64,000 nucleotides of DNA from a bacterium. Its GTDB lineage: Bacteria > Hydrothermota > Tepidihabitantia > Tepidihabitantales > Tepidihabitantaceae. Positions within the stretch are counted from its first letter, which is position 1, and the number at the start of each line of letters is the position of its first letter. The stretch spans positions 10,673-74,672 of the forward strand of contig DATJQV010000075.1 in NCBI GenBank assembly GCA_035505375.1, given 5' to 3'. The notes beneath the pieces were generated by a model. It saw only the letters and a program-made list of their open reading frames with translations, was not told where the DNA came from and made no database searches. This document shows positions 15,092 through 39,215 of the stretch, one piece after another. The translations under genes were made by a program, and so were the position numbers.

Positions 15092-15718
15092 TTACCCCGA
15101 AAGGAGTTGGCCAGATGCCTTCCCGACCGGTTCTCCCGCAGAGTGGATTAGCACAGTCGGACCTAGTTCCACAGCTTCCCTGCCTGTGGTAAAGGCAAGC
15201 CCGTACGCAGTGCCGAATGAACCCGCGGGATCACCGCGACCTGGCTCCTTCACGATGACCGCCAGAAGTTCCTGGTCTTCATCCAGAGGGTAGTTCCTCA
15301 CGTCACTCTTGAGTGCCTCCAACCTGGGCCTCACGCTCCTCTCATAGGTCGTCCCTGCAAACCCAACGAAGATGAGTTTGGGGCTCTTCGACGCCAGGAG
15401 TTTCTGAAAGTCGTATCGTATCGCAGGGAGGCTGGCTTGGCATTCGTATTCACACGCAAGTTCTACTGACTGGAAACCGTCGGCACCAACTTTTCCCTTA
15501 GTGAGAAGGAAGTCCCACAGCCATTCATGGCTGTTGGTCTCGGGTCGCGGGCAGTTGGCCGTAGTCGGTCCGGTTTGGCATTGCATGTCCTCGGATCGAC
15601 CGAGCGCGTACAGGTACTCGGCGACTGTAGGTTCCCATGTCCCCTCCCACACACTGTGCTTGGCCATGATGGCTCCACACAACCCAACGTACAGCGCTTG
15701 CGCATCAGGAAGCGCCAC
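15092..15718 (-). CDS. hypothetical protein (208 aa), last gene of the SIR2-HerA-GIY-YIG operon
   Basis: Follows the GIY-YIG gene after a 27-nt gap on the same strand. Amino-acid composition is ordinary. No recognisable motif was found. Confidence 0.5.
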   Translation of the reverse strand: MALPDAQALYVGLCGAIMAKHSVWEGTWEPTVAEYLYALGRSEDMQCQTGPTTANCPRPETNSHEWLWDFLLTKGKVGADGFQSVELACEYECQASLPAIRYDFQKLLASKSPKLIFVGFAGTTYERSVRPRLEALKSDVRNYPLDEDQELLAVIVKEPGRGDPAGSFGTAYGLAFTTGREAVELGPTVLIHSAGEPVGKASGQLLSG

Positions 15719-15745
15719 CGAATCCTCCAGTCATGGTCCTTTGAC

Positions 15746-16228
15746 TCAATGCTCCTTACCCTTGTAGATAGAGAACTCCGGTCGTAGCGCTGCTATGGCA
15801 AAGGCCTCTTTAACTTGGCGCTCCTTCTCGTTCGTGTCCTCGAAGAAACGGTACCCACAGCTCTCTCTCATGAAGCGCTTGGCTTCATCGTGGTCATACG
15901 CGCAGTCAAAGTGCACCAAGGCATTGCGAAGCTGCGAAGCGTGCTTGTCTCCCATCAGGTGATTCTGGTACAGGCGTTGGCGCAAGTTCTTGGTTGTCCC
16001 GACATACACGATTCCTGCGTAAGGCCCACGCGTGATAGAGATGGCATAAATCCCACCGGTCGTGGGTAGCTTGCTTGGCACAAGCGTTCTGAACGGCCGC
16101 GCCCGCGACGCCAAGAAGTCGTCAAGCCATCGGCCAAGGGCTGCGAGTTGGGTCCTTGCGCGATCCCGGACGGGGCCGTTCAGTATTGAGTTGGTGGACA
16201 TGATGTGCGTCTCCTCATCCTGCTTCAC
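15746..16228 (-). CDS. GIY-YIG nuclease family protein
   Basis: GGIYAISITRGPYAGIVYVGTTKNLRQRLYQNH contains the GIY ... YVG ... R ... N signature. The start overlaps the HerA stop by 14 nt, suggesting translational coupling. Confidence 0.75.
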   Translation of the reverse strand: MKQDEETHIMSTNSILNGPVRDRARTQLAALGRWLDDFLASRARPFRTLVPSKLPTTGGIYAISITRGPYAGIVYVGTTKNLRQRLYQNHLMGDKHASQLRNALVHFDCAYDHDEAKRFMRESCGYRFFEDTNEKERQVKEAFAIAALRPEFSIYKGKEH

Positions 16229-17945
16229 TCCATTCCTTCACGAAGCGCGGGTCGTCCGATTTGGGTTCTGGGTCAGGCCGCACTACCGAGACTCGTTGAG
16301 GGAACGGAACTGCGTTGCCCATCACGACTGCCTGCCCTCTCGGCAGACCAGGTATCTCCTTGAGTGTCAGCTTGTCCGCAACTTCGGCACCCGAGGACAC
16401 CGCTTTCTGGTCTGCTTCATTCGTAAGCCTGAATACGAACCAAGTGCCACATTGAGCCAAGACAGTCGGCGACAGCTCGCCTGGCCTCTGCGTACATACC
16501 ATCAGCGAGAGTCCGAACTTCCGTCCTTCCTTGGCCAGCCGTTCGTAGGCCAGCGCCTGACGGACGCCCTCCTCTTCGCCGGGCAACTCCCTTAGGTAAT
16601 GGTGTGCCTCCTCTAGGATGAGCAGCGTGGGATGCGTCTTTCCAGGACCTCGCTTGAATATCTCGGATGCATACGCTTCCAAGAGTGAGCCTAGGACAAA
16701 TGGCATCAAGTCCTTTGTGACTGAGCTTAGGTCCACGAGGTGTACACGCCACCCCCTCTTGCCGCTCCTTTTCTTTCCGAAGAACTTCTCTACCATCATG
16801 CGGCTCTCACATGTCCAGTCGAGCTGCGCGTCACAGGGCTCACCTCCCTCAACGTCGACCACATCGAGGAACCTGGGGTCCTCCGTGAGTCCACGTATGC
16901 GATTGACTAGCGAGCAGACGTGTCCATAGAGAAAGGCATCCCGTGTCGGGACGTTGTTTCTGTCTCTCTTGAGTACGTACCACTCAGCCGCAAGACAGGA
17001 CAGCGCCCGCATGTGAGGCCATTGATCCGCCTTCTTGGCCTTGTTGGACCTGATGTCTTCGAGTGCCTTCAGCGCGAGGTCCGCGCCAGAGTTCCGGCAG
17101 TCGTCAAAGAGCTCGTTGGAGTCACGATCAGTGAGTCGCGCTCCTTCTTTGTCCGCTACAACGTATTGCAGATGCTCGACCGCAAACCGGAAAGCAGGCA
17201 TCTGTGCCCGGTCGCTGGGCAGCACCAGCCGCGCAAGACCATTGCGGCCAAGTGCGTAGTAGGGAATCCGATAGCCGCTTCCGAGTTTGGTTACCTTAAC
17301 ACGTACCCCTAGTCCAGATACCGCAGGCGCGTACTCACCATTCACGTCGAATATGATAATGCGCGAACGCGGGAGAGTGAACAGCTGTTGGGCTAGAGCT
17401 GCCACGAAGTGCGTCTTGCCTTGGCCAGTACCGCCCAGTACGGCCGAGTGCCGCGAGAGCAGTGAGTTGATGCCGACGACGACCTCTGCAGTTCCAGAGC
17501 GAGCATCCCATCCGAGGCTGAGCGGCCTGTCGTTCGCTGGCAGTGCATGTAGGGCCACGTGCAGTTCTGCGTCGGACAAAGGGAACGCCTCCGCGCCGAG
17601 CGCTGGCAGCTTCCATGATTCGGCCACGAAGTGCAGCGCTCCATTCTCTCTTTGGATATACCCAATAGACGCCGTGCTCATTTGTCTTAGAGGCTCGTCG
17701 AACGACTCTGTTGTACCGACACCGCGCGTGTGTGCTTCGCGCGGCTCCATGAACTCGACGGACTGCACCTTCACGATGACTAGAAGGGCACCCGTCGGGA
17801 TGCCCAGGTAATCTCCTGGTTGGGCTACCGAAGAAACGCCGCCCTCGTGCGCGGCCACCTGCCCTTTGTGTGTTTCAAGCAGATTGAGGACTATGGTGGC
17901 CCCGTCGACTTTCACAACGTAGCCTACGGCCGACCTGCCTCTCAT
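16215..17945 (-). CDS. herA: HerA-like (DUF87/FtsK-HerA superfamily) ATPase/helicase of a SIR2-HerA defence system
   Basis: Walker A LGGTGQGKT and Walker B TLLILEEAHHY. The HerA-typical MVCTQRPGELSPTVLAQCGTWFVFRLTNEADQKAV is present. The start overlaps the SIR2 stop by 4 nt. Confidence 0.85.
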   Translation of the reverse strand: MRGRSAVGYVVKVDGATIVLNLLETHKGQVAAHEGGVSSVAQPGDYLGIPTGALLVIVKVQSVEFMEPREAHTRGVGTTESFDEPLRQMSTASIGYIQRENGALHFVAESWKLPALGAEAFPLSDAELHVALHALPANDRPLSLGWDARSGTAEVVVGINSLLSRHSAVLGGTGQGKTHFVAALAQQLFTLPRSRIIIFDVNGEYAPAVSGLGVRVKVTKLGSGYRIPYYALGRNGLARLVLPSDRAQMPAFRFAVEHLQYVVADKEGARLTDRDSNELFDDCRNSGADLALKALEDIRSNKAKKADQWPHMRALSCLAAEWYVLKRDRNNVPTRDAFLYGHVCSLVNRIRGLTEDPRFLDVVDVEGGEPCDAQLDWTCESRMMVEKFFGKKRSGKRGWRVHLVDLSSVTKDLMPFVLGSLLEAYASEIFKRGPGKTHPTLLILEEAHHYLRELPGEEEGVRQALAYERLAKEGRKFGLSLMVCTQRPGELSPTVLAQCGTWFVFRLTNEADQKAVSSGAEVADKLTLKEIPGLPRGQAVVMGNAVPFPQRVSVVRPDPEPKSDDPRFVKEWSEAG

Positions 17946-19261
17946 AAGTCGATGCGTCCCCGCCGTACCTCTTGTGGCCCGATGCCGTTCTCCATCTCAT
18001 CGTCGTCTGTGGTCTCGTTGACGGCTGACAACTTCAGAAGTGGAGCTAGCAAGGCCCTAGCTCGTTCGCTGAACTCATCGAGGAGGGTCGGTTCAGGGAG
18101 GTCGCGGACGAACTCCTCGAAATGCGCGCGATCAGCGTTACCCACCACAGTCACCTGCGGCGATTGGAGCTTGACGAACTTGCTGAGCTCTGAGCCTGCC
18201 TTATCCAGGGACACTTCGTCTATCTTGGCAGCCTTATCAAACGAAACCTCAGGTGCGTAGATGATCATCTGTAGCGTCGGGTTCTGCAGCGCGCTTAGCA
18301 ACACTCGGTTGACGTGAACGTCACCAAAACCATAGCCGTTTATCAAGATCGTTGTCTGTGGTCTGGCTAGGAAGTCGCCGAGGCGTCTGAACAACTCGCC
18401 GAAGAGGTAGTCTGTGGTCTGCATGTACTTTGACGTCCCCGGCATGACTACGAGATCCGGCCATTCCGCACCGACCTCGTTGTCTACCAGCTTCTTCAAC
18501 TTTCCCCATATAGCATTGCATGCTACCTCGCGCACGTGGCCCTCCTGGTTCAGCCTCCATGTTAGAGAGCCGTGCAGCTTAGCCAGATAGAAGTGATAAG
18601 AACCGAACCTTGCTTCGCCGCGGGCAAGGACGTTCCTATAGGCAAGGTCGAAGTTGTGCGGTGCGAATGTCCGATTGTGAAGTCCGCTGAAGCCGTTAAT
18701 CGCCATGAGACGCATCGACTCGGCTGCCCACTCCAAGGCCAAGTCATAGTTGAGGGTGAAAGCCCACGGGGCGGGTTGCCCTGGCTGTCTCGATGCGACC
18801 AGTCGACCCAGGAGCTTGCGGTGCGTGGATAATGACTCTGCGTCGTCGCAACGCGTCGGATGCCCAAATAGCTTCCTGTCGAGCAGTGTAGCCGAGACCA
18901 GAGTCCTCAAGAGCGCCAACCTATGCAACCTGAGCTTGTCTAGACCTTTGGCCTTCTGCCTCTCCCACTCGGCCTCGGCAGTCCTCAATGTGTCCAGCAA
19001 AGTCTCGACGTTCACGCCGGCAGCGTCGCCATCCGACTTGGTCACGAACCCCTCGGCTATCAGCCATTGAAGGCCGTCGGGACTGGATTGCTCGAAGTCA
19101 GTCCACACTTCTGACATCGTCTTACCGCCGACCTCATGGGAGGCACCGGCTCCCAGCAGTACGCCCACATTCTGAAGCCTCATCGCAGCAGCAATGTGCG
19201 ACCGTAGCTCTCTCGTGGTCATCATTCTCTCGCCTCTTAGCGCGACGTTAGACTCAGCCAT
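17942..19261 (-). CDS. SIR2-like (SIR2_2 family) NAD+-binding/NADase protein, partner of HerA
   Basis: GVLLGAGASHEVGG matches the GAGxS Rossmann motif, FTLNYDLALEW matches TxNYD, and KLHGSLTW matches the HG motif. Its position immediately upstream of herA matches the known SIR2-HerA gene order. Confidence 0.8.
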   Translation of the reverse strand: MAESNVALRGERMMTTRELRSHIAAAMRLQNVGVLLGAGASHEVGGKTMSEVWTDFEQSSPDGLQWLIAEGFVTKSDGDAAGVNVETLLDTLRTAEAEWERQKAKGLDKLRLHRLALLRTLVSATLLDRKLFGHPTRCDDAESLSTHRKLLGRLVASRQPGQPAPWAFTLNYDLALEWAAESMRLMAINGFSGLHNRTFAPHNFDLAYRNVLARGEARFGSYHFYLAKLHGSLTWRLNQEGHVREVACNAIWGKLKKLVDNEVGAEWPDLVVMPGTSKYMQTTDYLFGELFRRLGDFLARPQTTILINGYGFGDVHVNRVLLSALQNPTLQMIIYAPEVSFDKAAKIDEVSLDKAGSELSKFVKLQSPQVTVVGNADRAHFEEFVRDLPEPTLLDEFSERARALLAPLLKLSAVNETTDDDEMENGIGPQEVRRGRIDL

Positions 19262-19549
19262 AGTGTCCTCCTAGAAAAAGAAACAGAACGCTACTCGCAT
19301 ACACAACCCTGTCATCTGCGGCTCAGTTCTGGGGGCTGGCTTGCCTGCATGGTAGAGCTCACACAGGGCAGGGCCAAGCTGGCTCGGATAGGACTGACTC
19401 CAGAGTGACGGCACGACCTTCCAATCACTTCCGCTCCAGGAACTGCCGGATGGCGGGGATGCAGGCGGCGAGACCGGCTCCGGTTCGCGGGCGGGCTTCC
19501 GTCACTTCCCTTCTGATGCGCTTCTGGAATCGCCCCGTAGCACACACCG

Positions 19550-22500
19550 TCATGGGTTATGCCTGAAGCCCAGTGCTTCAGCAGCCTCCCAAAGAACGCG
19601 AGCAGTTTCCTCAAGCTCTGCGGGGAGCTTCCTGGCGCTCTCGTGGTATTGTCCAATCGTGAAGGCTAAGTTCCGAGCTTTCGGAGTCAGGTGATCATCC
19701 ATCTTCGCCCATCTGGCCAGCGCGTACCAGGCGGCAGCCTCCGCGGAGGCCTTTGGGCTTGTGGTCTGACGGATAGCTGGGGCGGGTCTGAGCCGAGACC
19801 TGACTTGTGGCCTAACTTCCTTGGCGACAGCCTCTACGGCCGTCGGGGCGACTTCCCACTCGAATGGCGTCTGCGTGGGTGCCTGGCGCGCGGGACTCAC
19901 TTGAGCGTGGTAGCTTGGGGCCGGTAACTCCGCCAGGACACGGACAACCTGCTCAATGCACTGGTCGCGGCTGTGCCAGTACTTACGTGAGGGCACACGG
20001 AAGACATGCCACCCCGCTCTTTCTAGGATGTGCTGGCGCTCGATGTCCTCGATCCTCAACTCGCCGGCGTCATCGTAGTGAAACCGCCCGTCACACTCAA
20101 CTGCCAAGCGCCGTCCGCTTGCGTCGGTCACAACAAGGTCGATGCGGAATCCGCAGGCGGGATATTGGGGTATTACGTTCAGGCCCCGCCGCTCAAGGAG
20201 CATGCACACATCCTCTTCGAACGGGCTGTCATGCACGCTCAGCGCTGGGATGGGACCGCAGTTCGGGTTCTTACAGTGAATCAAGAAGTCTCGAACTAAA
20301 CCCGCAGGGAACTCGCTGACGTCCATGCTTGTGTAGCAGATCACTTTCTTGCGCGCTCGGGTGAAGGCGACATTCATGCGGCTTTCACCTCGATTCGCCT
20401 GCTGAATGGCTAGTACGACGCCTGGGTGCGAGTTTGGGGCGTACCTGAAAGAGTAGAAGATCACATCCCGTTCATCACCCTGGAAGCCATCGACCGTGGA
20501 CGCGATTAGTGGTTCGCGCGCAGACCTCGTCGCTAACGTGCTGTCATCAATTAGGATATCTTCAAGCTTGGCCCTTATGTAGGCTGCCTGCTCCCTGTAG
20601 AGCGATAGCACGCCGAATGACATGTTTTCGTACGCCGGGTCACGCATCCGGCGCGTCAAATCAGCGATGAGCAGATCAGCTTCCTTCTGGTTCACTGAGT
20701 TCTCATCTTCGAGTGCCCCTTGCACGTGAATGACCTCAAAGGCGCCACCCACCGGTGCGGCGGCACCATGGGTCATTATCCTGAGCTGATTGGAATAGAA
20801 CCTCGAGTTGGAGAAGGCGATGATCTCCGGCAGGCTGCGGTAATGCTCATTGAGAAACACCTTCCTTTCGCGCCACAGGGCGACTAGATCCAGCAAGGAT
20901 GATTCCAACACGTCAAAGGCAAACGCCTTTGGGAGGGCGTCTATGCCATATCGACGCTTGATAAGGGCGTTGGTAGGCACTGGAAAGAACATGAGGTCTG
21001 AGTTCGGAAGCTGCTTCTCGTCACCGACCACGATTGCCGACTTCGCCCTGTACAAGAGCGGCAGTGCTCCCATAAGGTGGCATTGCGACGCCTCGTCGAC
21101 TATCACCACGTCGAATAGTCCCGGTTCGAGAGGGAACACCCTGCAGACGTCATTCACATTCATGACCCAGCAAGGCAGCACGTCAAGGATTCTGCTGAAA
21201 TTGACGTCGTTCTTGAGCCGTTCGAAGCTCTCGAAGTTCCTCCTGCTCCTTCTCAGTGCCTTGCGCAACGTGGCAACATCACGCCCCACATCGCGAGACG
21301 CGTACTGCCGGCCGAGGTTTGTGTCGACGCGCCGACGCAGGAGTTTTGCCGTGTTTTCGGCGAGATCGTGCTCGTTCTTCTTAATGGCGACCGCAACGCT
21401 CGCAGTGTCGTGCGGATGAGAGCACAAGTCCGCTTGGACGGCCTCGTTGAAGCGACGCGCTCTCACGAGCCGAAGCAACTGGTCGCGGCCCAACGGTTGC
21501 TGCAGCACTCGTGGCGTCGCGGTCTCATCGCGGAGCCACGCGGCCAAGTGCGGGCCCAACGCAGGTTCCGCCTGCCTGAGCGCAGCAAACTGCTCGATTG
21601 AGAGGGCGAGCCTCCGCATAACCTCAGCAGTTTCCCGCAGTTTCTTGTATTTGTTACCCTCCGTCAACTGAAGCACCTCGTATGCCGAGGCGATCGGCTT
21701 CATGTTCGCGCATGCCGCTACGAGTTCGTCACCCTTCACCAACGCAGACAGAGCCTTCGTGACGATATCAATATGCTCCTTGGCGGATGCGACGGAGAGT
21801 AGGTCGTCAATGGACAGGCAATCAAAAGGTTGTTCTCGCAAGGCCAGCTCGACAGCGGATTGGAGATCAGAAAGGGCTAAGACGTCGAGCAGCCTCCGTG
21901 ACTGCTTCAATAGGGTTGTTGTGTCTCCAGCGCGCGCGGCCAACACGAAACTGTTCTGGCAGAGTTCCACGGGGAGACGACGTGCTAGGTCGGTTATCTC
22001 GGCGCGTGCTCGCATCCTCTGCCAACGTCTCCGCATGTGGTACCAACGGCAATCACGGTTGGCCCTTACTTTCTCTGCAATACTGATCATCCGCGTGAGG
22101 TCATCGCGAGCTGTGCTGCGCATGTCATCATCATATACGCTGAGCGCGGCGGCCTGCTCCCGCAATAGCCCGACATCATCGTATCTTTGTCGCATCAGTT
22201 CCAGGCACTGAGCGAATTGTATAGCGTGCGGCTCGACCTTTCCTATTGCCTGAAGTATGCGACTGGCAAGACTAGGCGAGAACGCCTGGTCAGCAAGCAG
22301 GTCTGTCTTCGTCTGCACTACGCCATCGGCAGCCAGCAGTTCTCCCAGGGTGGCGAGTATGCCGGCAAGCGAAAGCATGCCATTCGCAACCGTCGTGGGT
22401 TCCTCGTTGAGGAGAGGCATCGACTGAGCCCAGGAGGATAACACTCTCCACCAACTGCTGGGCTCGAATCCCGCACTTCCCGACGCGAACCTCCGCAAGT

Positions 22501-23938
22501 AATCCTGCATACGTTGCACGAGCTGCTCGTCCTCCATGTCAGGTAATCTGATGTCGGACGGCATGACGTCATCAGATCGAGTCGCGTGGTATGACCTGAA
22601 CAGCGGTTCGCTTTGGTGCTCCTGCTGTCTGGCGGCAGAGAAACTGTTCGACAACTCAGCAGCATTGTGTCTGAGGCCGACTCGTTCCATCTCAAGGCTC
22701 GACAACGACCTGCTCAGCAATTCCGCTCTGCTGGTTTGCAGGTGAGCGTCAATGGCCTGCAGTTTCTGCTGCAGAAGGCGTTTGGACTCTGCGTCATCCC
22801 TCAGGAGGGTCATTGACAGGTATTCCACGCCGAGCTCGTTCAGTTTGTCGGAGACGACCTCCAGGGCTTTGTTCTTCTGGCTCGTCACAAGCACGGACTT
22901 TCCTTCCGCTACCAGATGGCACACGAGGTTACAGATGGTCTGAGATTTCCCGGTGCCCGGCGGCCCTTGGACTTCCACTAGTCGATGGCTATCTACACAC
23001 GAAAGAACACTGCGTTGCGGCGGATTACTTGCGAAGGGGAAGATGCAGTCCACTGTCTCCTCGCCGCTAGGCGACTCCTCTGCAGCAGCGTCTACCGGCT
23101 GCGAGGCGTCGCCGAACATTGATGCCAACACTGAGCCCTCTACTGACAAGTCTGGATCCGCCAGAGCTGCAAGGTTGCTCTGGAGGTAATACTGCGGATT
23201 CGCGACTAGCAGTAATGCTGCACAGGGCATGACGTCCAGCCGTGGACCAGCTGCTGCCCGCCCCCGGGTTAGTTTTTCTAGTGTCCACTCCCAGTCGAGT
23301 GGAGGTGCGAAGGCGGATGTTGCGTTCGCCACTGTTCTCACGAATTCAGTGAAGTCGGCATCCGCGAGGGGAAGCGATGGCACTCTGAGGTCCCTTACGG
23401 ACAACTCGAAGTAGTGTTGTTGCTGCTCAGTCAGGAGCTTTGGCCAAACCTGGGAGTTGAAAGTCAGACTATCATTGACTAGACGGATCTTCACCGCCGA
23501 AGTCGGTAGGTCGACTGTAACCGCGCAGCGAACGGTAAAGAGTGGCGCGCATATCCGGACGTCTCGCGGGCCGACTCCGACTAGGAAGGGGTAGCCGTAA
23601 ACGATCTCGCGTTCATATGGGTTCAGTACCTGTCTCTGGTGGAGTCGCTTAAGTCGGTCGAATGCGACGGCCGGATCGTTGTTCGCCGGACCTTCGGACG
23701 AGTGTAGCTCAGCAGCCGCTGGGATGTCGAATAGCTCTTCGCGCGCGCTCGGCGGCCTGATGGTAGCCTGTCCTGTACCCTTGAAGAGCGTCTCGGCGTT
23801 TTGCAGAAACGACATGTCAACATAGTCATGCACGCCCGCTTGGAACACATCCGTCAGGTGTTTGTTGGCAGCGTCATAGGTGAGTTTTGTTACGGCTTGG
23901 TAGTACTGGGCGAGTCGGCTTATATCGGAACTAGTCAT
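19550..23938 (-). CDS. giant SF1 (Upf1/DNA2-like) helicase with N-terminal DUF4011-like region and C-terminal DUF559/Vsr-like endonuclease domain; architecture of the single-gene Hhe defence system
   Basis: Walker A VQGPPGTGKSQTICNL and motif II FDVVIVDEASQ. The AAA_12-like motifs NEHYRSLPEIIAFSNSRFYSN and STVDGFQGDERDVIFYS are present. The C-terminal IDLVVTDASGRRLAVECDGRFHYDDAGELRIEDIERQHILERAGWHVFRVPSRKYW is DUF559-like. The protein is 1462 aa long. Confidence 0.85.
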   Translation of the reverse strand: MTSSDISRLAQYYQAVTKLTYDAANKHLTDVFQAGVHDYVDMSFLQNAETLFKGTGQATIRPPSAREELFDIPAAAELHSSEGPANNDPAVAFDRLKRLHQRQVLNPYEREIVYGYPFLVGVGPRDVRICAPLFTVRCAVTVDLPTSAVKIRLVNDSLTFNSQVWPKLLTEQQQHYFELSVRDLRVPSLPLADADFTEFVRTVANATSAFAPPLDWEWTLEKLTRGRAAAGPRLDVMPCAALLLVANPQYYLQSNLAALADPDLSVEGSVLASMFGDASQPVDAAAEESPSGEETVDCIFPFASNPPQRSVLSCVDSHRLVEVQGPPGTGKSQTICNLVCHLVAEGKSVLVTSQKNKALEVVSDKLNELGVEYLSMTLLRDDAESKRLLQQKLQAIDAHLQTSRAELLSRSLSSLEMERVGLRHNAAELSNSFSAARQQEHQSEPLFRSYHATRSDDVMPSDIRLPDMEDEQLVQRMQDYLRRFASGSAGFEPSSWWRVLSSWAQSMPLLNEEPTTVANGMLSLAGILATLGELLAADGVVQTKTDLLADQAFSPSLASRILQAIGKVEPHAIQFAQCLELMRQRYDDVGLLREQAAALSVYDDDMRSTARDDLTRMISIAEKVRANRDCRWYHMRRRWQRMRARAEITDLARRLPVELCQNSFVLAARAGDTTTLLKQSRRLLDVLALSDLQSAVELALREQPFDCLSIDDLLSVASAKEHIDIVTKALSALVKGDELVAACANMKPIASAYEVLQLTEGNKYKKLRETAEVMRRLALSIEQFAALRQAEPALGPHLAAWLRDETATPRVLQQPLGRDQLLRLVRARRFNEAVQADLCSHPHDTASVAVAIKKNEHDLAENTAKLLRRRVDTNLGRQYASRDVGRDVATLRKALRRSRRNFESFERLKNDVNFSRILDVLPCWVMNVNDVCRVFPLEPGLFDVVIVDEASQCHLMGALPLLYRAKSAIVVGDEKQLPNSDLMFFPVPTNALIKRRYGIDALPKAFAFDVLESSLLDLVALWRERKVFLNEHYRSLPEIIAFSNSRFYSNQLRIMTHGAAAPVGGAFEVIHVQGALEDENSVNQKEADLLIADLTRRMRDPAYENMSFGVLSLYREQAAYIRAKLEDILIDDSTLATRSAREPLIASTVDGFQGDERDVIFYSFRYAPNSHPGVVLAIQQANRGESRMNVAFTRARKKVICYTSMDVSEFPAGLVRDFLIHCKNPNCGPIPALSVHDSPFEEDVCMLLERRGLNVIPQYPACGFRIDLVVTDASGRRLAVECDGRFHYDDAGELRIEDIERQHILERAGWHVFRVPSRKYWHSRDQCIEQVVRVLAELPAPSYHAQVSPARQAPTQTPFEWEVAPTAVEAVAKEVRPQVRSRLRPAPAIRQTTSPKASAEAAAWYALARWAKMDDHLTPKARNLAFTIGQYHESARKLPAELEETARVLWEAAEALGFRHNP

Positions 23939-24034
23939 GGAAGCTCAATGGAACACTCCCGGCATTCCGAGCCTCCATCGGGGGTTTGGCGAAGCTAAGT
24001 CTTTGAGGGCAAGGTCTTTGAGGACCTGCAGTTG

Positions 24035-24271
24035 CTAGATGCGCTGCTCGGTCCATTCGCTCTCGCCCGAGAAGACGTACTGGAAGAGCCAGAGGTCGAA
24101 CTGCTCGCGGAGGAAGGCCTTGGCATTCTTGTTGATGAAGTAGTCAACCTCGCTCTGCCGCTCGAACACGCGGAACGCCCGCTCGACCGCTTCTTCCTTC
24201 ACCTCGACGCCGAGCTTGTGCAACTGGCGCATGATGTCGTCCATGGTTCGGCGGATTCGTTCTTCGTTCAT
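24035..24271 (-). CDS. small hypothetical protein (78 aa) downstream of fic
   Basis: ORF with balanced composition: MNEERIRRTMDDIMRQLHKLGVEVKEEAVERAF...LWLFQYVFSGESEWTEQRI. No family assignment could be made. Confidence 0.35.
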   Translation of the reverse strand: MNEERIRRTMDDIMRQLHKLGVEVKEEAVERAFRVFERQSEVDYFINKNAKAFLREQFDLWLFQYVFSGESEWTEQRI

Positions 24272-24385
24272 CGTTCTTCGTTAATCGGCCACACCGCACT
24301 TGCCGGTATCAGGCATGAGAGTCTACGGCGTCAGCGCATATAGGTACTGAAAGCCGGTTCAGTACACAATAATTGCGCATCGTAC

Positions 24386-25432
24386 CTATACCCGCTTCCA
24401 CTTCGCGTCCGGGCCGCGTCCGAGGCATCCGAGTCTTCCCGCCTTGCGTTCGTTGCGCAGGATGCGGCGGATAAGGTCAATGCCGACGTTGGGGCAGCGC
24501 TCAAGGACGTCGCGGGCCGAGAAATCGCCGGATATGTGCTCAAGCATGTCCAGCACGAGGGCGGTCTTGCTGCCGCGTCCGGTCGCGACCAGGCCGACCC
24601 GGCGTTCAAATTCCTGGTACGCCCCGACCAGCATCACGCCGAGGAAGTACTCAAGCCACGGCGTCAGATCGTGTTTGGCCTGATGCCAGCGCTGGGAGGA
24701 ACGGTAGAGCGTGTCGTAGTAGCCGGGTTTCGTGTCTTCGACAACCCGCTCCAGGCTGACGTACCTGCCGACTTCGTAGCCGGCACGGTAGAGAAGTTGC
24801 AGCGTGAGCAGGCGTGCCAGTCTGCCGTTGCCGTCGCTGAATGGGTGAATACACAGGAAGTCGAGGACGTAGGCGGCAATGAGGAACAGCGGTTCAATGT
24901 CGCCTTGGTCCCAGCGAAGGTCGAACCGCTCGTGCAGCGTCGCCATGGCCGCAGGCGTCTGGCGTACGCCGACCGGGACGAACTGCACGACCCGGATTCC
25001 CTCAGGCATGACCGCAACGATCTTGTTGTTCTTTCGCTTCCAGTGCCCGCCTTGTCCCGGGACCAGCCGAAACACCTGCCCGTGCAGGGCCAGCACCGAT
25101 GGCGCGTTGAACGCCATCCGGACGTGGTTGGCGTGAATCGAGTTGAGCGCGTCGCGGTAGCCCGCAATCTCCTGCTCCGACCGGTCCCGCGGCCTGGTTC
25201 TCCTCGCAACCAGCTCGCGAATCCTCTCCGGGGACGCGGTAACGCCCTCTATCCGGTTCGACGATTCAGTGCTCTGGATGATGGCCACTTGTCTCAGCGT
25301 TTCGAGAACCTGCGGTGCTTGCTCTTTGAACAGGTCCTGCCTGCCCTTGTATTCGCCCAGCAGTCTGACGGTCTTGAGCAGGTTCTGACTGACCGGCACG
25401 CGCTCCAGGTAGCCGGTCTTGAACGAGTTCAC
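24386..25432 (-). CDS. fic: Fic family protein (Fic_N + Fic + C-terminal wHTH)
   Basis: Fic motif HPFSDGNGRLARLL. The N-terminal Fic_N-type motif STESSNRIEGVTASPERI (SxxxEG inhibitory-helix pattern) is present. The length is 348 aa. Confidence 0.85.
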   Translation of the reverse strand: MNSFKTGYLERVPVSQNLLKTVRLLGEYKGRQDLFKEQAPQVLETLRQVAIIQSTESSNRIEGVTASPERIRELVARRTRPRDRSEQEIAGYRDALNSIHANHVRMAFNAPSVLALHGQVFRLVPGQGGHWKRKNNKIVAVMPEGIRVVQFVPVGVRQTPAAMATLHERFDLRWDQGDIEPLFLIAAYVLDFLCIHPFSDGNGRLARLLTLQLLYRAGYEVGRYVSLERVVEDTKPGYYDTLYRSSQRWHQAKHDLTPWLEYFLGVMLVGAYQEFERRVGLVATGRGSKTALVLDMLEHISGDFSARDVLERCPNVGIDLIRRILRNERKAGRLGCLGRGPDAKWKRV

Positions 25433-25444
25433 TCAGTGCCCCGC

Positions 25445-25560
25445 AGGTAGTCGCACGGCCTTGAGGCAGCATGCAGTAGGCAGTACACAGCACACAGGCA
25501 TCAAGACGACGGTCCTTTCACGCCGGCGATAGACGCTATCAGGCCATGAAGCATCCCAGA
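25445..25560. repeat. CAGCATACAGCA / GCAGTAGGCAGTACACAGCA repeat block (same family as 14395..14525 and 25990..26075)
   Basis: gcagcatgcagtaggcagtacacagcacacagg ... cagcatgcagcagacagcatacagtatacgg. Confidence 0.45.
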
Positions 25561-25604
25561 GCAGCATGCAGCAGACAGCATACAGTATACGGGGAAGAGA
25601 GTCG

Positions 25605-25985
25605 TCACTGTGACGTGATCCTCGTCCCGTTTGCGACTGATCTTGTCAAACCGTGGAGCATTCTGGCGATCTCTTCGGTACTCTCGACCATCTCGCGGTT
25701 GTCAGGCATGTATCCCAAGTCCTTTGAGAGAATCAGGTAGTAGCGCAGCTCTTCGAGCGAGCCTTGCGCGATATTGTAGAAGTTGAGCTTGTCCCGGACC
25801 CCGCGCTTCTTGAAGCCTTCCGCCAGATTGGCCGGCACCGAGACTGCGGCTCGTCTCATCTGCGAAGTCAGTCCGAACCGCTCCTCAGCCGGGAAGCTCC
25901 CTGTGATTCGATAGACCTGCAGCACCATCTGGTGGGCCTTCTGCCACACCGTCAAGTCCCCGAATTGCCTTATCTTCTCAGCCAT
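25605..25985 (-). CDS. four-helix-bundle protein (23S rRNA intervening-sequence protein family, PF05635-like)
   Basis: MAEKIRQFGDLTVWQKAHQMVLQVYRITGSFPAEERFGLTSQMRRAAVSVPANLAEGFKKR...NIAQGSLEELRYYLILSKDLGY matches the family consensus. The ORF track extends it to 26066 through a repeat, so an internal start at 25985 is preferred. Confidence 0.6.
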   Translation of the reverse strand: MAEKIRQFGDLTVWQKAHQMVLQVYRITGSFPAEERFGLTSQMRRAAVSVPANLAEGFKKRGVRDKLNFYNIAQGSLEELRYYLILSKDLGYMPDNREMVESTEEIARMLHGLTRSVANGTRITSQ

Positions 25986-25989
25986 GCTA

Positions 25990-26075
25990 GCCAGTATACA
26001 GTATGTAGCATACAGCATCCAAGAGCCGCTCCCTGCATACTGCATACTGTATGCTGTATGCTGCAAGGAAACGCT
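25990..26075. repeat. ATACAGTATGTAGCATACAGCA ... TGCATACTGCATACTGTATGCTGTATGCTGCA palindromic repeat block
   Basis: Internal inverted symmetry (CAGTATACAGTATG / CATACTGTATGCTG). Related to the blocks at 14395 and 25445. Confidence 0.45.
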
Positions 26076-26200
26076 CCTGGCTCTTGTCTGCTTTGGCTGT
26101 CGCGTTCACAGCCACGGCAAACCTCCAACACGGTGCATCGACATGCGTCAGAATGTTAGTCTCGTGCCGTACATAGTCAAGCCCGCGCGCGACTGGGCGG

Positions 26201-26590
26201 TCAGTCGGAATCGTCCGTGCTCCCGGCCAGGGGCAGGGCACGGATGCGGACTCGGGCCTGCTCGAAAACAACGACGCTGCCCGATTCGAGCGCCTCAGCG
26301 ACGCCAGGCAGGTTCTTCAGCAGCAGCGCGACCTGACGTTCGGGCCGCCGTTCGGTCCGACGCCGGAACAGGATGACCGACGGCTGTTTGAGAGCCCGGT
26401 GCGCGAGAATCTGTCCGAAGTCGGTGTCCGCAGAAATGAGGATTCGCCCTTCGCGGGCGGCGCAGGCAAAGACTGTCTCGTCGTCGGCGTCACGGATTCC
26501 TTTGTCCCGGACGTGCGACGCATCGTGTCCGGCCCGACGCAACGCCGCGGCCACGTCGGGCGAGAGGGCATTGTCGACGAGGAACTTCCA
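26201..26590 (-). CDS. DUF5615 (PIN-like, Mut7-C-like) putative toxin; the reading frame has no in-frame start codon (possible frameshift or pseudogene)
   Basis: The frame translates [61 protein letters not shown], matching the DUF5615 consensus (xLLLDENLSPRL...AGHDA). A TGA lies immediately 5' of the W codon, and the first ATG is only at 26554. Confidence 0.5.
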
Positions 26591-26817
26591 TCAGCGACCA
26601 GCAGCGGCAGCTCGCGCTCGCGCACTGCTTCTGCGGCATAGCGCATGGCCTCGCGGATGTCCTCGGTCTCGAGGTCCGGGTAGGCCTTGAGTATTTCCAC
26701 CTCGGCCATGCCATCCGCGAACATACCCACGATGGTGGCGACCGGAATCCTCAAGCCCCGAATGCAGGGCACGCCGCCCATCTGGAGCGGGTCAATCGTG
26801 ATGCGTGTGAATTTCAT
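26317..26817 (-). CDS. DUF433 antitoxin-like protein (first ~80 aa) whose frame reads through ~85 low-complexity codons over the DUF5615 gene; probable junction frameshift
   Basis: [65 protein letters not shown] matches DUF433. The remainder ([21 protein letters not shown]...) is an out-of-frame translation of the DUF5615 gene. Confidence 0.5.
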
Positions 26818-27036
26818 GTTCTCACCTCTGGCTTTCGTCAGTCATACTATGCCACATGCAACAGCGGATGTCAACCTGCTCACGCTGCGGAGTCGCATTG
26901 ATTGCGGCGGCGCGACGCTGGCGACGGAGGCGTCGGGTTCGGCCGGATCTGGCCTTGCATCAGTAGGGATGTTATGCGCGCGCCGGCTAGAGTCAAGGCC
27001 AGCGCGGGCCGGAGCGATGGAAAGAAGGGGTCTGGC

Positions 27037-27366
27037 GCAGGCCTGGGTGCCGTTGCAGAAGCAGGAACGGCGGCCGTTGCGTCTGCGGGAACGTGGGCCG
27101 GAACGGACGCTGTTTCGGTGTCTGGAACAGATGCTGTTGCGGGCGCAGGCACGAGAGCCGTTGCGGCAGCAGGGCCGGTAGCCGTTGCGATACGAGGACC
27201 GGGTGCGGTTCAGGGCGCAGGTGCAGTGCCGGAACCAAGTGCTGTTGGGGTGAGAGTTCCGGAGGCCGGTGCGATGCCAGACCATGAGGCCGGAGCGGTT
27301 TCCGTTGCAGCGGCCGGAACGGCTGCTGTTTCCGGGGTTGGGCCGGCCGCAGGAACGAGGGCCGGA
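27037..27366. repeat. array of ~27 degenerate 12-nt units (24-nt super-period GCAGGAACGGCG-GCCGTTGCGNNN) with internal inverted symmetry; open in most frames
   Basis: gcaggcctgggt gccgttgcagaa gcaggaacggcg gccgttgcgtct gcgggaacgtgg gccggaacggac ... gccggaacggct gctgtttccggg. Plus-strand translation gives AGTxAV tetrapeptide repeats. Several overlapping ORFs are open on both strands. Confidence 0.6.
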
Positions 27367-27409
27367 TAGGGGGCAGGAACTCCCCCAGCCGTCTAGGGGA
27401 TAGAGAGAA

Positions 27410-27458
27410 CCGGACAAAGCAGAAACCAGAATTCAGAGACCAGAAACCAGAAATGCCC
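27410..27458. repeat. GGACAAAGCAGAAACCAGAATTCAGAGACCAGAAACCAGAA copy of the intergenic element family
   Basis: Direct match to the family core. Confidence 0.55.
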
Positions 27459-27692
27459 GAACGGGAAAGACTTAGGACACGACGGCGGGGACGAAGTCAA
27501 AAGGCAGCAGCCAAGAGCCAAGAGTCAAGACCGGAGATCTGGAACGATGAACGGGCGAACTCCGGGTTCACCGAGAGGACGAAAAGAACTGAGGGCTTAG
27601 TGACTCTCTCCGGCTGGGCATAACTTCTTCACACTCAGTCGGTTAAGCGTTATCGCGTTGCGGATAATCCGCATATAGGGGTCGCCTGGGGG

Positions 27693-27970
27693 CTAGCCTT
27701 TGAGGAAGCGTTCAGAGGAGCCATGAAACAAGCCTTGAAGTGAGCTTTGAGTTGAGCTTTCAGAGGAGCTTTGCCGCGAGCTTTCGACTGAGCTTTGCCG
27801 CGAGCGATGCGAGGAGCGATGCGCCGAGCTTTGAGATGAGCAATGCACGAAGCGATGAAGCGAGCTTTGCAGTGAGCCATTGAAGAAGCTATGAAGTGAG
27901 CTTTCGAGTTTGCTTTCTAAGGTACTTTCCGGCGAACTCTGAAACGAGCTTTCGGACGAGCTTTGTGGCG
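27693..27970. repeat. array of ~23 tandem 12-nt units NGAGCTTTGNNN (8 conserved + 4 variable nt), immediately upstream of der
   Basis: ... caagccttgaag tgagctttgagt tgagctttcaga ggagctttgccg cgagctttcgac tgagctttgccg cgagcgatgcga ggagcgatgcgc cgagctttgaga tgagcaatgcac gaagcgatgaag cgagctttgcag ... cgagctttcgga cgagctttgtgg. The only long ORF through it (27693..28424 on the minus strand) starts inside der on the antisense strand. Confidence 0.65.
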
Positions 27971-28062
27971 AAGAATTAGACAAGAATTGACGCGCCACCT
28001 CACGAGTCCGCGCCGCCCTCGGAATCCTCGAAAGCGCGGTGCTTTCTGCTATAATACCACCC

Positions 28063-29334
28063 ATGGTCGTCATCGTCGGCCGGCCGAATACCGGTAAGTC
28101 AACGCTCTTCAACCGCCTCGTCGGCGGCCGCGTCGCCATCACGTTGCAGCAATCCGGCATTACGCGCGACCGGATCATCCGCGATGCCGAGTGGCTGGGG
28201 CGCCGATTCAAGGTCGTGGACACCGGTGGTCTGGTCCCGAACTCGAAAGAGGAGATGAACCGCGAGGTCGAGCGCCAGGTGCAGATTGCGCTGGACGAAG
28301 CCAAGGTCATCGTGCTCGTGGTTGACGGCTCGGTCGGGCTGCAGCCGCTGGACGCGGAGATCGCCACGCGCCTGCGCCGGGCCGGCCGGGAGTTCATCGT
28401 CGCGGTGAACAAGCTCGACATCAAGCGGAAGTTCGAGGAGGCCGACTATCACAAGCTGGGCGGGGCAGCGCTCATCCCGATTTCGGCCGAAGCCGGGACC
28501 GGCGTAGACGAGCTGCTGGAAGCAGTCCTGTCCCGGTTGCCCGAGGTTGTGCGGGCGAAGCGGGCCGACGTGTTGTCGCTTGCCATCGTCGGCCGCCCGA
28601 ACGTCGGGAAGTCCTCGTTGATGAACTATCTGCTCGGCCACTCCCGCTCGATTGTCACGGCCACGCCCGGCACCACGCGCGACGTCATCGAGGAGTCGTT
28701 CGAGCTGGAGGGACACGCCTATCGTCTGCTCGACACCGCCGGCATCCGCCGCAAGCCGCGCGTGAGCGAGCCGGTCGAGTACTATTCGGTCACGCGCGCG
28801 ATTGAGCAGATTAAGCACTGCGACGTCGCCCTGGTCATGTTCGACGCCCACGACGGGCCGAACAACCAGGATAAGCGTATCGTCAACCTGGCCGTGGAAC
28901 GGAGCCGGGGGCTGGTCGTCATCGCCAACAAGATGGACACTGTGCCGGACAAGCTCAAAGACAAGGTGCGTGACTGGGTAAAGAAGGAGCTGAGTTTCGC
29001 GGACTACGCGCCGGTCCTGTTCACGTCGGTGCTGCAGGGCCTGGGTGCAACCGAGGCAGTGCACGAGGCCCGCCGGGTCTGGGAGAACGGCGGACAGCAG
29101 ATACCCGGGCCGAAGCTCCGCGAGAAGATTCTGCCGTTGCTCGAGAAGAACCAGCCGCGGTTCGACTGTCGCGTAGTCGCGATCAGCCAGGTGAGCACGC
29201 GGCCGCCGACTTTCCGGCTACGGGTGACCAGGCCCAACGTTCTCGCGCCCGCGTACGAGCGATTCGTTATCGCTGAAATCCGGAAGCGGTTCAAGTTCAT
29301 CGGGTACCCGATACGGATCAAGACCACACGCTGA
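28063..29334 (+). CDS. der: ribosome-assembly GTPase Der (EngA), two tandem GTPase domains plus KH-like C-terminal domain
   Basis: G1 motifs GRPNTGKST and GRPNVGKSS. DTGG/DTAG and NKxD (NKLD, NKMD) motifs are present twice. The supplied ORF starts at GTG 28039, but ATG 28063 (MVVIVGRPNTGKS) lies 8 nt after a TATAAT hexamer. Confidence 0.9.
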   Translation: MVVIVGRPNTGKSTLFNRLVGGRVAITLQQSGITRDRIIRDAEWLGRRFKVVDTGGLVPNSKEEMNREVERQVQIALDEAKVIVLVVDGSVGLQPLDAEIATRLRRAGREFIVAVNKLDIKRKFEEADYHKLGGAALIPISAEAGTGVDELLEAVLSRLPEVVRAKRADVLSLAIVGRPNVGKSSLMNYLLGHSRSIVTATPGTTRDVIEESFELEGHAYRLLDTAGIRRKPRVSEPVEYYSVTRAIEQIKHCDVALVMFDAHDGPNNQDKRIVNLAVERSRGLVVIANKMDTVPDKLKDKVRDWVKKELSFADYAPVLFTSVLQGLGATEAVHEARRVWENGGQQIPGPKLREKILPLLEKNQPRFDCRVVAISQVSTRPPTFRLRVTRPNVLAPAYERFVIAEIRKRFKFIGYPIRIKTTR

Positions 29335-29478
29335 GGCGGACGCGGAGAAACCAGAAATCAGATATCAGAGAACTGAAAGCAGAATTGACCGAGGCTCGGA
29401 CAGAACGCAGTGAGGGCGGACGCGGAGAAACCAGAAATCAGATATCAGAGAACTGAAAGCAGATTCGGGTGTGCCCGG
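29335..29478. repeat. two direct copies (~78 bp period) of GGCGGACGCGGAGAAACCAGAAATCAGATATCAGAGAACTGAAAGCAGA
   Basis: Near-identical copies start at 29335 and 29413. The core belongs to the CAGAAACCAGAA family. Confidence 0.65.
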
Positions 29479-29517: not shown

Positions 29518-29937
29518 GTGGATACGCTAGACAGACTGGATGACAGGCTGGACATGGACAGCAGGCTGCTGCACTTCGCGGCAGATGTGATCGCGCTGGC
29601 TCCTCGTCTTCAGCGGTCGCCGACTGGAAGGTACCTTGTGGGACAGATGGTACGCGCGGGCACTTCAGCCGGGGCCAACTTCCAGGAGGCGCGCGGGGCC
29701 GAGAGTCGGGCTGACTTCGTGCACAAGATGCAAGTCGTACTCAAGGAGCTGCGCGAGACCGAATACTGGCTCAGGCTCCTCAGAGAGGCCAAGCTGATGC
29801 CATCGGATCTTCTAGCGGGCCCGCTCGCGGAAGTGGACGAACTGATTCGGATCGTCGTCAAGTCGGTGGTAACGGCGAAGACAAGACATTACAATGCGGG
29901 CGGCGGAGAAACCAGAAATCAGATATCAGAGAACTGA
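29518..29937 (+). CDS. four-helix-bundle protein (23S rRNA intervening-sequence protein family), second copy
   Basis: GQMVRAGTSAGANFQEARGAESRADFVHKMQVVLKELRETEYWLRLL matches the family pattern. The C-terminal 12 aa (GGETRNQISEN) are the translation of the adjacent repeat element. Confidence 0.6.
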   Translation: MDTLDRLDDRLDMDSRLLHFAADVIALAPRLQRSPTGRYLVGQMVRAGTSAGANFQEARGAESRADFVHKMQVVLKELRETEYWLRLLREAKLMPSDLLAGPLAEVDELIRIVVKSVVTAKTRHYNAGGGETRNQISEN

Positions 29938-30046
29938 AACCAGAAATGTCCGAAGCCGGCTTTCTGATTTCTGGTATCTGATTTCTGACTTCACCTTTGT
30001 CCGTGTTTGCATTTCTGGTATCTGGTTTCTGAATTCTGGTTTGTCC
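29899..30046. repeat. inverted-repeat element GGCGGAGAAACCAGAAATCAGATATCAGAGAACTGAAACCAGAA ... TTCTGGTATCTGGTTTCTGAATTCTGGTTTGTCC
   Basis: Overlaps the 3' end of the four-helix-bundle gene and the annotated 5' end of the LCP ORF. Confidence 0.6.
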
Positions 30047-38712: not shown

Positions 38713-38879
38713 GAGCGGCCCAAAGTCGGTATCGCCTCAGTCGTCCACAGCAAACTGCCAACTGGGCAGACTGTGACATCTGGCGCTGAAAGCGCCCGTC
38801 AACGGCCACTGAAAAGCTCACCGGAAAGCGCCTCCTGCAGCAGCTCTAATCGTGAGCATCGTCGTATCTCGGGTTGTGT

Positions 38880-39215
38880 ACTGCATCTTGTCTTCGACTG
38901 TATCTTGAACTGCATCTCAACTTCCACCTTGAGCTGGATTCTCAACTGTTCCCGCCATTGGAGTTGTAGGGCAGTGGGAGGAACAATCCGGGAAGCAGCT
39001 CTCCGAGCAAACCGGAGACCAACGGTCGGAGCTACCTCGGGACCAACGAGGAGAGCAACCCGCGGAGTTAGCCGGGCCGCAACGCTCCGACCAACCCGGA
39101 GAGGAACCGGTGGAGTTACGGATAGACTAACCGGGAAAGCTAACCGGAGAGGAACCGGTAGAGCAACCCGGGGAGTTGCGGTGGAGGTTCATCCGGGAAT
39201 TACGGTGGAGATAAC
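38880..39215. repeat. third 12-nt-periodic degenerate array (units like ACCGGAGAGGAA / ACCGGTGGAGTT; proximal part TTGAACTGCATC-type)
   Basis: aaccggagacca acggtcggagct acctcgggacca acgaggagagca acccgcggagtt agccgggccgca ... accggtagagca acccggggagtt. Translation in one frame gives TRRxTGGV-type tetrapeptide repeats. Confidence 0.55.

Follow-up and report, generated by a model that had tools for sequence, protein, structure and literature searches.

A non-coding array of 12-nt units upstream of der in candidate division WOR-3 and evidence for constraint on its register

Location of array 1 upstream of der

We analysed a 64-kb stretch of bacterial DNA (contig DATJQV010000075.1, positions 10,673 to 74,672 of the forward strand), here called the window, and in it a GC-rich periodic element that we term array 1. 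Array 1 (27020–27366, − strand) comprises ~28 degenerate 12-nt units with a 24-nt super-period; its orientation was assigned from a head motif at the high-coordinate end. Homologs of Der place the window in candidate division WOR-3, near UBA2258 (82–93% Der identity); related loci are designated by L numbers. The gene immediately upstream of der in relatives encodes an alpha/beta-hydrolase (− strand), whereas a ~14-kb insertion separates the two genes in the window (~14155–27000, by comparison with L001, L002, L003, L005 and L007). The insertion carries DUF87, SIR2-like and Fic genes, a gene for a 1462-aa AAA_11/AAA_12/MTES_1575 helicase, an Avd-like four-helix-bundle gene and a DUF433/DUF5615 toxin–antitoxin (TA) pair; it looks like a defence island. 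Array 1 occupies its der-proximal edge.

The TA pair with a promoter-like site (26201–26874, − strand) forms the gene unit that adjoins the tail of array 1, and the gene on this side varies between contigs, being different in L168 and L169. On the other side follow the head of array 1, a spacer, a second array with its own head (array 2, 27695–27990, + strand) and the der promoter (28028–28065, + strand). A preliminary description of this DNA had placed the second array 330 bp away, which agrees with its start at 27695 and a distance of 328 bp. The ~900 bp of periodic DNA that it had given for the interval between the TA module and der was too high; periodic DNA accounts for ~620–680 bp of 1246 bp.

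Periodicity and reproducibility of array 1

Written in 12-nt rows, positions 27037–27366 follow the + strand pattern G-C-n-G-K-W-n-C-G-G-n-n, and the phase is continuous throughout the 330 nt. The autocorrelation was 0.585 at lag 24, 0.52 at lag 48, 0.44 at lag 12 and 0.41–0.43 at lags 6 and 18, compared with ~0.30 elsewhere. Relative to 2000 dinucleotide-preserving shuffles, none of which reached the observed values, the z scores were 11.8 (lag 24), 8.7 (lag 48) and 5.8 (lag 12). The 12/24-nt periodicity that had been noticed in the sequence is real. The regular alternation of GCAGGAACGGCG and GCCGTTGCG was borne out in part: 15 of the 27 units fit one of the two consensus sequences (5 A-type and 10 B-type) and 12 fit neither, an assignment that depends on the thresholds chosen here, and A–A and B–B slips interrupt the alternation. 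That is, "27 alternating units" is an idealised picture of array 1. Tandem Repeats Finder detected the array only in fragments because its units are just 60–70% alike.

A contig from a different European Nucleotide Archive sample (L167) is 100% identical to window positions 21685–27958, array 1 included, and a sister array at 38.9–39.2 kb is reproduced by contigs from 3 further samples. The assemblies from the four samples that were compared are identical and show no length polymorphism. Array 1 is not an assembly artefact. L167 ends at window position 27958, and L163 and L165 both end at 39084; that is, three independent short-read contigs stop within dodecamer arrays. Since several contigs terminate inside them, the arrays act as assembly breakpoints, a practical point for short-read assemblies, which break within arrays.

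Absence of a conserved reading frame

The preliminary description had remarked that array 1 is open in almost every frame; indeed, three of the six frames are stop-free and the others contain one or two stops. We considered the array as a gene for an Ala/Gly/Thr/Val-rich octapeptide-repeat protein (AGTxAVxx), with candidate open reading frames (ORFs) at 26902/26974–27369 on the + strand. The period is divisible by 3, GCN-type codons place their variable third base at unit position 3, no stop interrupts the frame within the array in the window or L168, and the third codon position is slightly more variable between the window and L006 (0.52 vs 0.70/0.67, p = 0.06). In L167, a 131-aa gene was called at 590–985 on the identical array 1 sequence.

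The orthologs argue against such a protein. The Ala/Gly frame has in-frame stops in three of five orthologous copies, namely L169 and L006, at the same column, and L170, which also lacks the terminal stop and reads through. Upstream of the array, 1–2-nt indels shift the frame between orthologs, and the N-terminal region lacks conservation. The four closer orthologs gave fractions of variable columns of 0.31/0.31/0.39 at the three codon positions, i.e., no codon-position signal, and indels of 3, 6 or 9 nt were absent although repeat proteins tolerate them freely. A Cys/Arg-rich antisense frame is the only one free of stops in every one of the five orthologs, and its third positions fall on the most conserved bases. 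No array ORF matched Pfam, and no gene was called on the arrays in the 184.7-kb source contig (k141_639409). A search of 5.8 billion proteins for homologs of the 131-aa Ala/Gly ORF returned only five (P0001–P0005), all of them translations of array 1 or its orthologs. The ortholog comparison thus supports no single translated frame. We conclude from the frame stops, the codon-position pattern and the Pfam result that array 1 is periodic non-coding DNA and not a low-complexity protein gene, an alternative that we regard as extremely improbable. The five "hypothetical proteins" are probably spurious gene calls; gene callers sometimes produce such Ala/Gly-rich "proteins" on arrays, and the protein collection holds these five entries.

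Constraint on the 12-nt register

Orthologs of array 1 were compared among the window, L168, L169 and L170 (the four closer copies) and L006 (a fifth, more diverged copy). The array is part of a module, comprising array 1, a G5/C5 hairpin, CAGAAnn heptamers, a spacer, a der-type head and array 2, that is common to L168, L169, L170 and L006/L092. As had been proposed, array 1 and the neighbouring GAGCTTTG array form a unit, since the pair recurs in all of these loci.

Over array 1, the four closer copies are 76–84% identical in pairs. Their 337 columns contain at least 130 substitutions and no indel, and L006 aligns with array 1 without a gap over 212 nt at 63–67% identity. The flanks, few and short, contain 3 indel events in ~116 columns, a rate that predicts 8.7 events in the array; the probability of observing none is ~2e-4. 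Substitutions are also unevenly spread within the unit. The fraction of variable columns is 0.14–0.19 at unit positions 2, 4 and 8 and 0.50–0.63 at positions 7, 11 and 12, and identity between the window and L006 ranges from 0.39 to 0.94 by unit position (p = 0.002). A 17-nt core, GTTCAGGGCGCAGGTGC (27208–27224, no strand assigned), shows no change in any of the five orthologs, even in L006 with its overall identity of only 63%. This overall identity between the window and L006 (0.63) is close to that at 4-fold degenerate sites of der (0.60; random expectation 0.39); therefore, the linker positions look neutral and the core positions look selected. In the der arrays of more distant species, both clean internal alignment gaps measure exactly 12 nt.

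These comparisons show that the 12-nt register, together with a few core positions per unit, is maintained by selection while the other sequence drifts. Copy-number variation between close relatives and near-identical units, the marks of a neutral minisatellite or contingency locus, were not found: array 1 is 337 nt long in four orthologs and its units are diverged. Given the exact length and phase kept across species, array 1 probably has a function.

Folding of array 1 and its sister arrays

The preliminary description had suggested that an internally palindromic 24-nt super-repeat enables the locus to form an extended series of hairpins or cruciforms. The palindromes are short; the best of them, AACGGC-G-GCCGTT, has arms of just 6 bp. 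The longest inverted repeats in array 1 are 15 nt at 87% identity (25-nt gap) and 34 nt at 71% (101-nt gap); it contains no long near-perfect inverted repeats with short spacers of the REP/BIME type. Secondary-structure prediction separated the strands. Folding of the + strand modestly exceeded that of shuffles (window, z = −3.1 and −2.8; L168 ortholog, z = −3.6), whereas the − strand did not (z from −0.9 to +0.8); true cruciform palindromes would be strand-symmetric. RNAalifold on the five orthologs gave a covariation term of +5.4, where positive values are penalising, with many pairs broken and double changes at only 6 of 108 predicted pairs. Moreover, 13 sister arrays of other unit types, with the same period and length, showed no excess folding on either strand (z from −2.0 to +1.6).

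A and B units are in part reverse-complementary to each other, and because units lie in alternating orientation, the self-complementarity of array 1 looks like a by-product. The proposal that array 1 is palindromic DNA or RNA that works through serial hairpins or cruciforms is largely refuted by the single folding strand, the missing covariation, the short arms and the unfolded sister arrays, and we consider it highly improbable.

A family of dodecamer arrays

A sliding periodicity scan of the window detected four dodecamer arrays within the 64 kb, about one per 16 kb. Members of the family measure ~250–370 bp and consist of 20–30 contiguous degenerate units, each made of a ~8-nt core and ~4 variable bases, 12 nt altogether. 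Array 2 has ~24 units of the form GAGCTTTGnnnn and extends into the der promoter. Array 3 (38860–39356, − strand) lies between two convergent genes and comprises ~30 units, partly of the GGAAC/GTTGC type seen in array 1, with its body at 38860–39230 and its head at 39236–39356 (− strand). Array 4 (63410–63700, + strand) has ~20 units, with a hairpin and G6 head at 63410–63456 and the array body at 63457–63700; it is situated upstream of a gene at 61492–63234 (− strand) and points away from it. Units are in direct orientation in array 2 and alternate in arrays 1 and 3.

The position of array 2 is also occupied in relatives. Six distinct, related WOR-3 loci have a 12-nt periodic array of ~22–24 units immediately before the der promoter: the window (27695–27990), L002 (9649–9948), L003/L085 (L003 6421–6720), L083 (9457–9804), L091/L099 (L091 9661–9960) and L097 (1237–1512). 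In L006/L092 and L009, der arrays are displaced from der by insertions. The unit sequences at this position are species-specific (GAGCTTTG, GAGGCTTG, GAGGTCAAGGTT, GATACA and others). Array 3 likewise has positional counterparts, located downstream of the creatininase gene, in L001 (20509–20892) and L092 (20005–20230).

As controls we used 1.17 Mb of non-WOR-3 loci, which contained no comparable non-coding arrays. The three hits with strong 12-nt periodicity in the controls look coding, because they sit in an open frame that encodes PEPV-type or Ala/Lys-rich tetrapeptide repeats. Such tetrapeptide-repeat linkers share with the WOR-3 arrays a GC-rich composition and a 12-nt DNA period over 200–400 bp. 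They form one clean open frame inside a longer sequence, whereas the WOR-3 arrays have no conserved frame, codon-position signal or in-frame indels. Plasmid and phage collections contained nothing similar to the arrays, and our literature search on 12-nt or dodecamer repeats and on WOR-3 tandem repeats found nothing relevant. Rfam 15 gave no match at gathering thresholds in the window and seven related loci; the single hit at E ≤ 1 on the arrays was a chance snoRNA (E = 0.4). The arrays do not resemble CRISPR loci, with conserved repeats of 23–50 nt and unique spacers of comparable size, as the whole array unit is only 12 nt.

Taken with the coding and ortholog results, these findings make it very probable that array 1 is real, non-coding, register-constrained and a member of a lineage-specific "dodecamer array" family in a candidate division WOR-3 clade.

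Heads, spacer and der promoter

One end of each array carries a head, i.e., a G-run beside a GC-rich hairpin whose sequence varies by locus. The conserved head region of array 1 (27367–27520, − strand) is ~75–86% identical over its first ~80 nt in the window, L168, L169 and L170. It contains a G5/C5 hairpin, GGGGGCAGGAACTCCCCC (27369–27386), whose five G–C pairs are retained in 4–5 of 5 orthologs, CAGAAnn heptamer repeats (27416–27453) and a second hairpin, GACTT...AAGTC (27469–27498). Beyond these ~80 nt the remaining spacer diverges with indels. The spacer proper between the two heads (27521–27659, no strand assigned) is poorly conserved; AGCCAAG heptamers lie at 27509–27530.

The head of array 2 (27660–27698, + strand) is degenerate, with a small hairpin, GCGGATAATCCGC, followed by TATAGGGGTCGCCTGGGGGCTAGCC. 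In relatives, der arrays are preceded by a conserved head of ~85 nt composed of AATCTAyATGTAG, ~20 nt, ACCACAATTCTGCCGTGGGG, a variable GC-rich hairpin and CCyGGGGGATAGCC, and the head of array 2 aligns with the 3' half of this element. The der-type head is intact in L168. A G-run and hairpin of this kind also mark one end of array 3, of its L001 counterpart and of array 4. Array 1 was oriented on the − strand because, read on that strand, it has the head motif CTGGGGGAGTTCCTGCCCCC at its high-coordinate end and contains CCG(G)TTCC units, as array 3 does. Eight heads were combined into an nhmmer profile, which matched only its own training sequences; therefore, the likeness between heads of different loci (arrays 1, 3 and 4 and L001) is at the level of motifs judged by eye.

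The head was also considered as a sigma-70 promoter. A consensus scan did not call it in L003, L006 or L091, and we retain it as a weak possibility. A leaderless ORF starting from a conserved GTG in the head was rejected: L003 has the frame open through the whole array, but in L091 and L006 a stop follows after 12 and 22 codons, respectively, and L002 has no such GTG.

The der promoter itself, TCGAAA-16-TGCTATAAT, has an arrangement conserved in relatives. The ATG of der lies 7 nt past the TGCTATAAT extended −10 element and has no Shine–Dalgarno sequence, as also in L002, L003, L083, L091 and L097, which suggests that der mRNA is leaderless in this lineage.

A possible DNA platform and rival explanations

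We propose that a dodecamer array acts as a double-stranded DNA platform for a cooperatively binding protein. The protein would nucleate at or near the head and polymerise along the array with one protomer per 12 bp or, in arrays of alternating units, one dimer per 24 bp. The result would be a continuous nucleoprotein filament bordering a transcription unit; in the window, this border falls between the variable defence island and the promoter of der. Under this proposal, an indel of any length other than a multiple of 12 would interrupt the filament and would therefore not be tolerated. Since unit orientation is free and neither strand composition nor folding is consistent between arrays on either strand, a strand-symmetric reading in double-stranded DNA is simpler than an RNA. 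We hold the filament mechanism itself with low confidence, and the explanation as a whole, combining family identity with the DNA platform, is tentative, with somewhat less than an even chance of being correct.

Several observations weigh against the platform. No candidate binding protein was identified, and neighbouring genes vary (the DUF433 TA pair, der and others). Unit sequences vary both within a genome, from array to array (e.g., GGAAC/GTTGC and GAGCTTTG), and at a given locus from species to species, so a single sequence-specific binder is unlikely, and several binders or shape-based recognition would be needed. The 12-bp spacing mismatches the 10.5-bp helical repeat. To our knowledge, 20–30 units far exceed the known operator and centromere arrays. 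The flanks behind the indel statistic of array 1 are few and short. In addition, the 5' halves of the der arrays of L009 and L097 align without gaps at 51% identity, compared with 81% at 4-fold sites of der. This divergence is faster than neutral, and thus points to unit turnover or gene conversion rather than to simple purifying selection; units of these two der arrays were probably replaced in register by gene conversion between arrays. Finally, the head always stands at one end, with weak promoter-like motifs upstream (CACAAT, which ends 6 nt ahead of the G-run, and, for array 1, TTCTGC-N17-TATCCY), which fits a transcribed element equally well.

Such an element could be a gene for an unstructured non-coding RNA, transcribed from just upstream of the head, with the hairpin protecting the 5' end and the units serving as a single-stranded platform or sponge for an RNA-binding protein. 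Besides the one-sided head, this explanation draws on hairpins whose pairing potential is kept despite sequence differences between loci (GGCGGCC/GGCCGCC, CCCGGG/CCCGGG, GGGG/CCCC and GGGGG/CCCCC), on a −10-like CACAAT/CACTAT 6 nt upstream of the G-run, on a strong hairpin after array 2 in L006 and on array 3, whose location amid convergent genes could plausibly accommodate a transcription unit of its own. Folding of the head strand, which equals that of shuffles, would suit a single-stranded platform. However, the sigma-70 scan called no promoter at three heads, RNAalifold support for the head is weak (−3 kcal/mol for the consensus fold), there is no RNA motif common to the unit types, and neither the strand composition, which is inconsistent between arrays, nor the Rfam search supports an RNA. 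Alternating units in arrays 1 and 3 and direct units in array 2 would moreover yield very different RNAs. We consider this explanation unlikely. The remaining rival is that the array is a functionless minisatellite, produced by a tendency of the lineage to make and homogenise short tandem repeats, with its phase kept by in-register recombination or gene conversion. The same tendency would produce the 7/14-nt tandem repeats that abound in this genome. It would also accommodate unit types that are shared across loci of one genome, e.g., GAGCTTTG at two L092 loci, and differ between species at one locus, the rapid divergence between L009 and L097, the whole-unit gaps in der arrays and the close-to-neutral identity between the window and L006. 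Adjacent units that are ~60–70% identical, however, are too diverged for efficient slippage, and the copy number of array 1 stayed constant in the four orthologs, and over 212 nt in L006, despite the substitutions noted above. The length is identical between assemblies from four samples, core unit positions vary 3–4 times less than linker positions across species, the 17-nt block is invariant, and the position is conserved at two loci across species with near-saturated synonymous sites. A functionless minisatellite therefore seems to us quite unlikely, and more so than a non-coding RNA.

Three further functions were rejected. A replication origin with 12-mer DnaA boxes was excluded because the 64 kb hold four arrays of different sequence. 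A Rho-utilisation (rut) array of C-rich, 12-nt-spaced YC motifs is attractive for the C-rich − strand of arrays 1 and 2; GC and AT skews relative to the head change sign between arrays and between orthologs, and the rut reading was therefore rejected as family-wide. GGA-rich units, which would characterise a CsrA-type sponge, occur in array 1 only. As to DNA bending, units phased at 12 bp are out of step with the helix and would not produce planar curvature.

Comparison with known systems

The closest working precedent for the proposed platform is the parS heptad array bound by omega, a ribbon–helix–helix (RHH) ParB protein of pSM19035. Omega binds contiguous 7-bp heptads of mixed orientation as a spiral of dimers on essentially straight DNA, and a gap abolishes function (PMC9499535). 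The dependence of the heptads on an uninterrupted register parallels the constraint on the WOR-3 arrays, and in both systems strictly contiguous short units, direct or inverted within one array, lie upstream of promoters. The heptads differ in that they comprise 7–10 copies of 7-bp units with a well-conserved consensus, are located on a plasmid and have a known binder, whereas the WOR-3 arrays contain 20–30 degenerate copies of 12 bp, with several unit types at several chromosomal loci, and no RHH partner or partition ATPase was identified for them. The 12-bp direct repeats of tubC carry a TubR filament, and the authors of the same preprint suggest that StbA may form a DNA–protein filament on the 9+2-bp repeats of stbS (bioRxiv 10.1101/2022.04.29.490116). 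The tubC repeats resemble our arrays in unit length and in serving as a tandem track for a cooperative DNA–protein filament. In contrast, there are only seven repeats, arranged as two sets, in tubC and ten in stbS, each of the two sites serves plasmid partition beside its own operon, and the WOR-3 arrays lack a TubZ/TubR or StbA context and show much lower unit conservation. Operator and centromere arrays in general, parC among them, are bound by a cognate protein (RHH or wHTH) that is usually encoded alongside. Like them, the dodecamer arrays have contiguous short units in a fixed register, direct or inverted; they do not share a well-conserved consensus, as units are 60–70% alike and unit types differ by array and species.

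Lineage-specific, multi-copy, intergenic families of short repeats are also known as the STRR heptanucleotide repeats of cyanobacteria and as REP/BIME elements. STRRs are short runs of near-identical 7-mers, and REPs are single or paired palindromes. The dodecamer arrays are likewise lineage-specific, multi-copy and intergenic, the window genome is also rich in heptamer repeats, and the GTAG/GGAG motif with a GC-rich hairpin in some heads resembles REP elements. Unlike both, they are long arrays of 12-mers, and no RAYT transposase was seen in the annotated parts of the window. Among RNAs, the multi-site sponges CsrB and RsmZ and the repeat RNA ToxI have many repeated short motifs in a non-coding region of 300–400 nt, as the arrays do. 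The motifs of CsrB lie in hairpin loops and are not strictly periodic. ToxI, a type III antitoxin, consists of near-identical 36-nt tandem units upstream of its endoribonuclease toxin gene, and the arrays share with it the tandem arrangement upstream of a gene. The WOR-3 arrays differ from these RNAs in having no conserved structure, common motif or Rfam family; their units are degenerate 12-mers, and downstream lies der, the DUF433/DUF5615 type II pair or no gene. Conservatively, the dodecamer arrays can be filed as a variant of tandem binding-site or short-repeat arrays.

A broader reading is that register-locked dodecamer arrays form a genome-wide class that templates a new nucleoprotein structure, either a chromatin-like DNA filament or a periodic ribonucleoprotein, and that they mark transcription-unit boundaries and a hotspot of defence-gene insertion, with unit types co-evolving with their binders. 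This reading is doubtful; if it were true, the arrays would not be a variant of plasmid centromeres but a new kind of bacterial genome-architecture element. If the constraint on the register reflects function, it would be a rare case in which selection acts on the period and contiguity of non-coding DNA and not on its sequence. The arrays would then point to a protein or RNA–protein polymer with a 12-nt footprint and mark the boundaries of transcription units and islands, which could be used for genome annotation, in an uncultured phylum whose gene regulation and chromosome organisation are barely known.

Neighbouring genes and heptamer repeats

Different insertions adjoin the der arrays of relatives; that of L006 measures 9 kb and that of L009 5.8 kb. 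In the TA pair of the window, the DUF433 ORF encodes 166 aa, with the domain only at residues 6–61, and overlaps the DUF5615 ORF, which lacks the first ~14 positions of its profile in Pfam. Where the two meet (26554–26600, − strand), the sequence ...GCTGATGGAAGTTC... has the look of a 1-nt frameshift at the start of the toxin, and a second assembly carries the identical sequence.

Tandem repeats of 7/14 nt are abundant, including CAGCATA, AGAAATC/TTTCTGA, TTCTGGT and CTTCGTC, at 25464–25590, 26033–26065, 29346–29449, 29907–29992 and ~25 other sites. Heptamer repeats flank, in inverted orientation, both PF05635 genes (Avd-like four-helix-bundle, "23S rRNA IVS protein"), which lie at 25605–26066 (− strand) and 29518–29937 (+ strand). 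A PF05635 gene with its inverted flanking heptamers looks like a small cassette. A stretch of TTCTGGT-type heptamers (13628–13803) lies inside the hydrolase ORF (12931–14259, − strand), where it replaces 5 nt of the L002 ortholog and adds 171 nt (57 codons) net. The reading frame is not interrupted, and the ORF encodes 442 aa in the window vs 349 aa in L001; repeat DNA was inserted in frame into this coding gene. A cluster of four tRNA genes (59325–59989) likewise has heptamer and 14-mer repeats within and after it (59744–59775 and 59864–59895).

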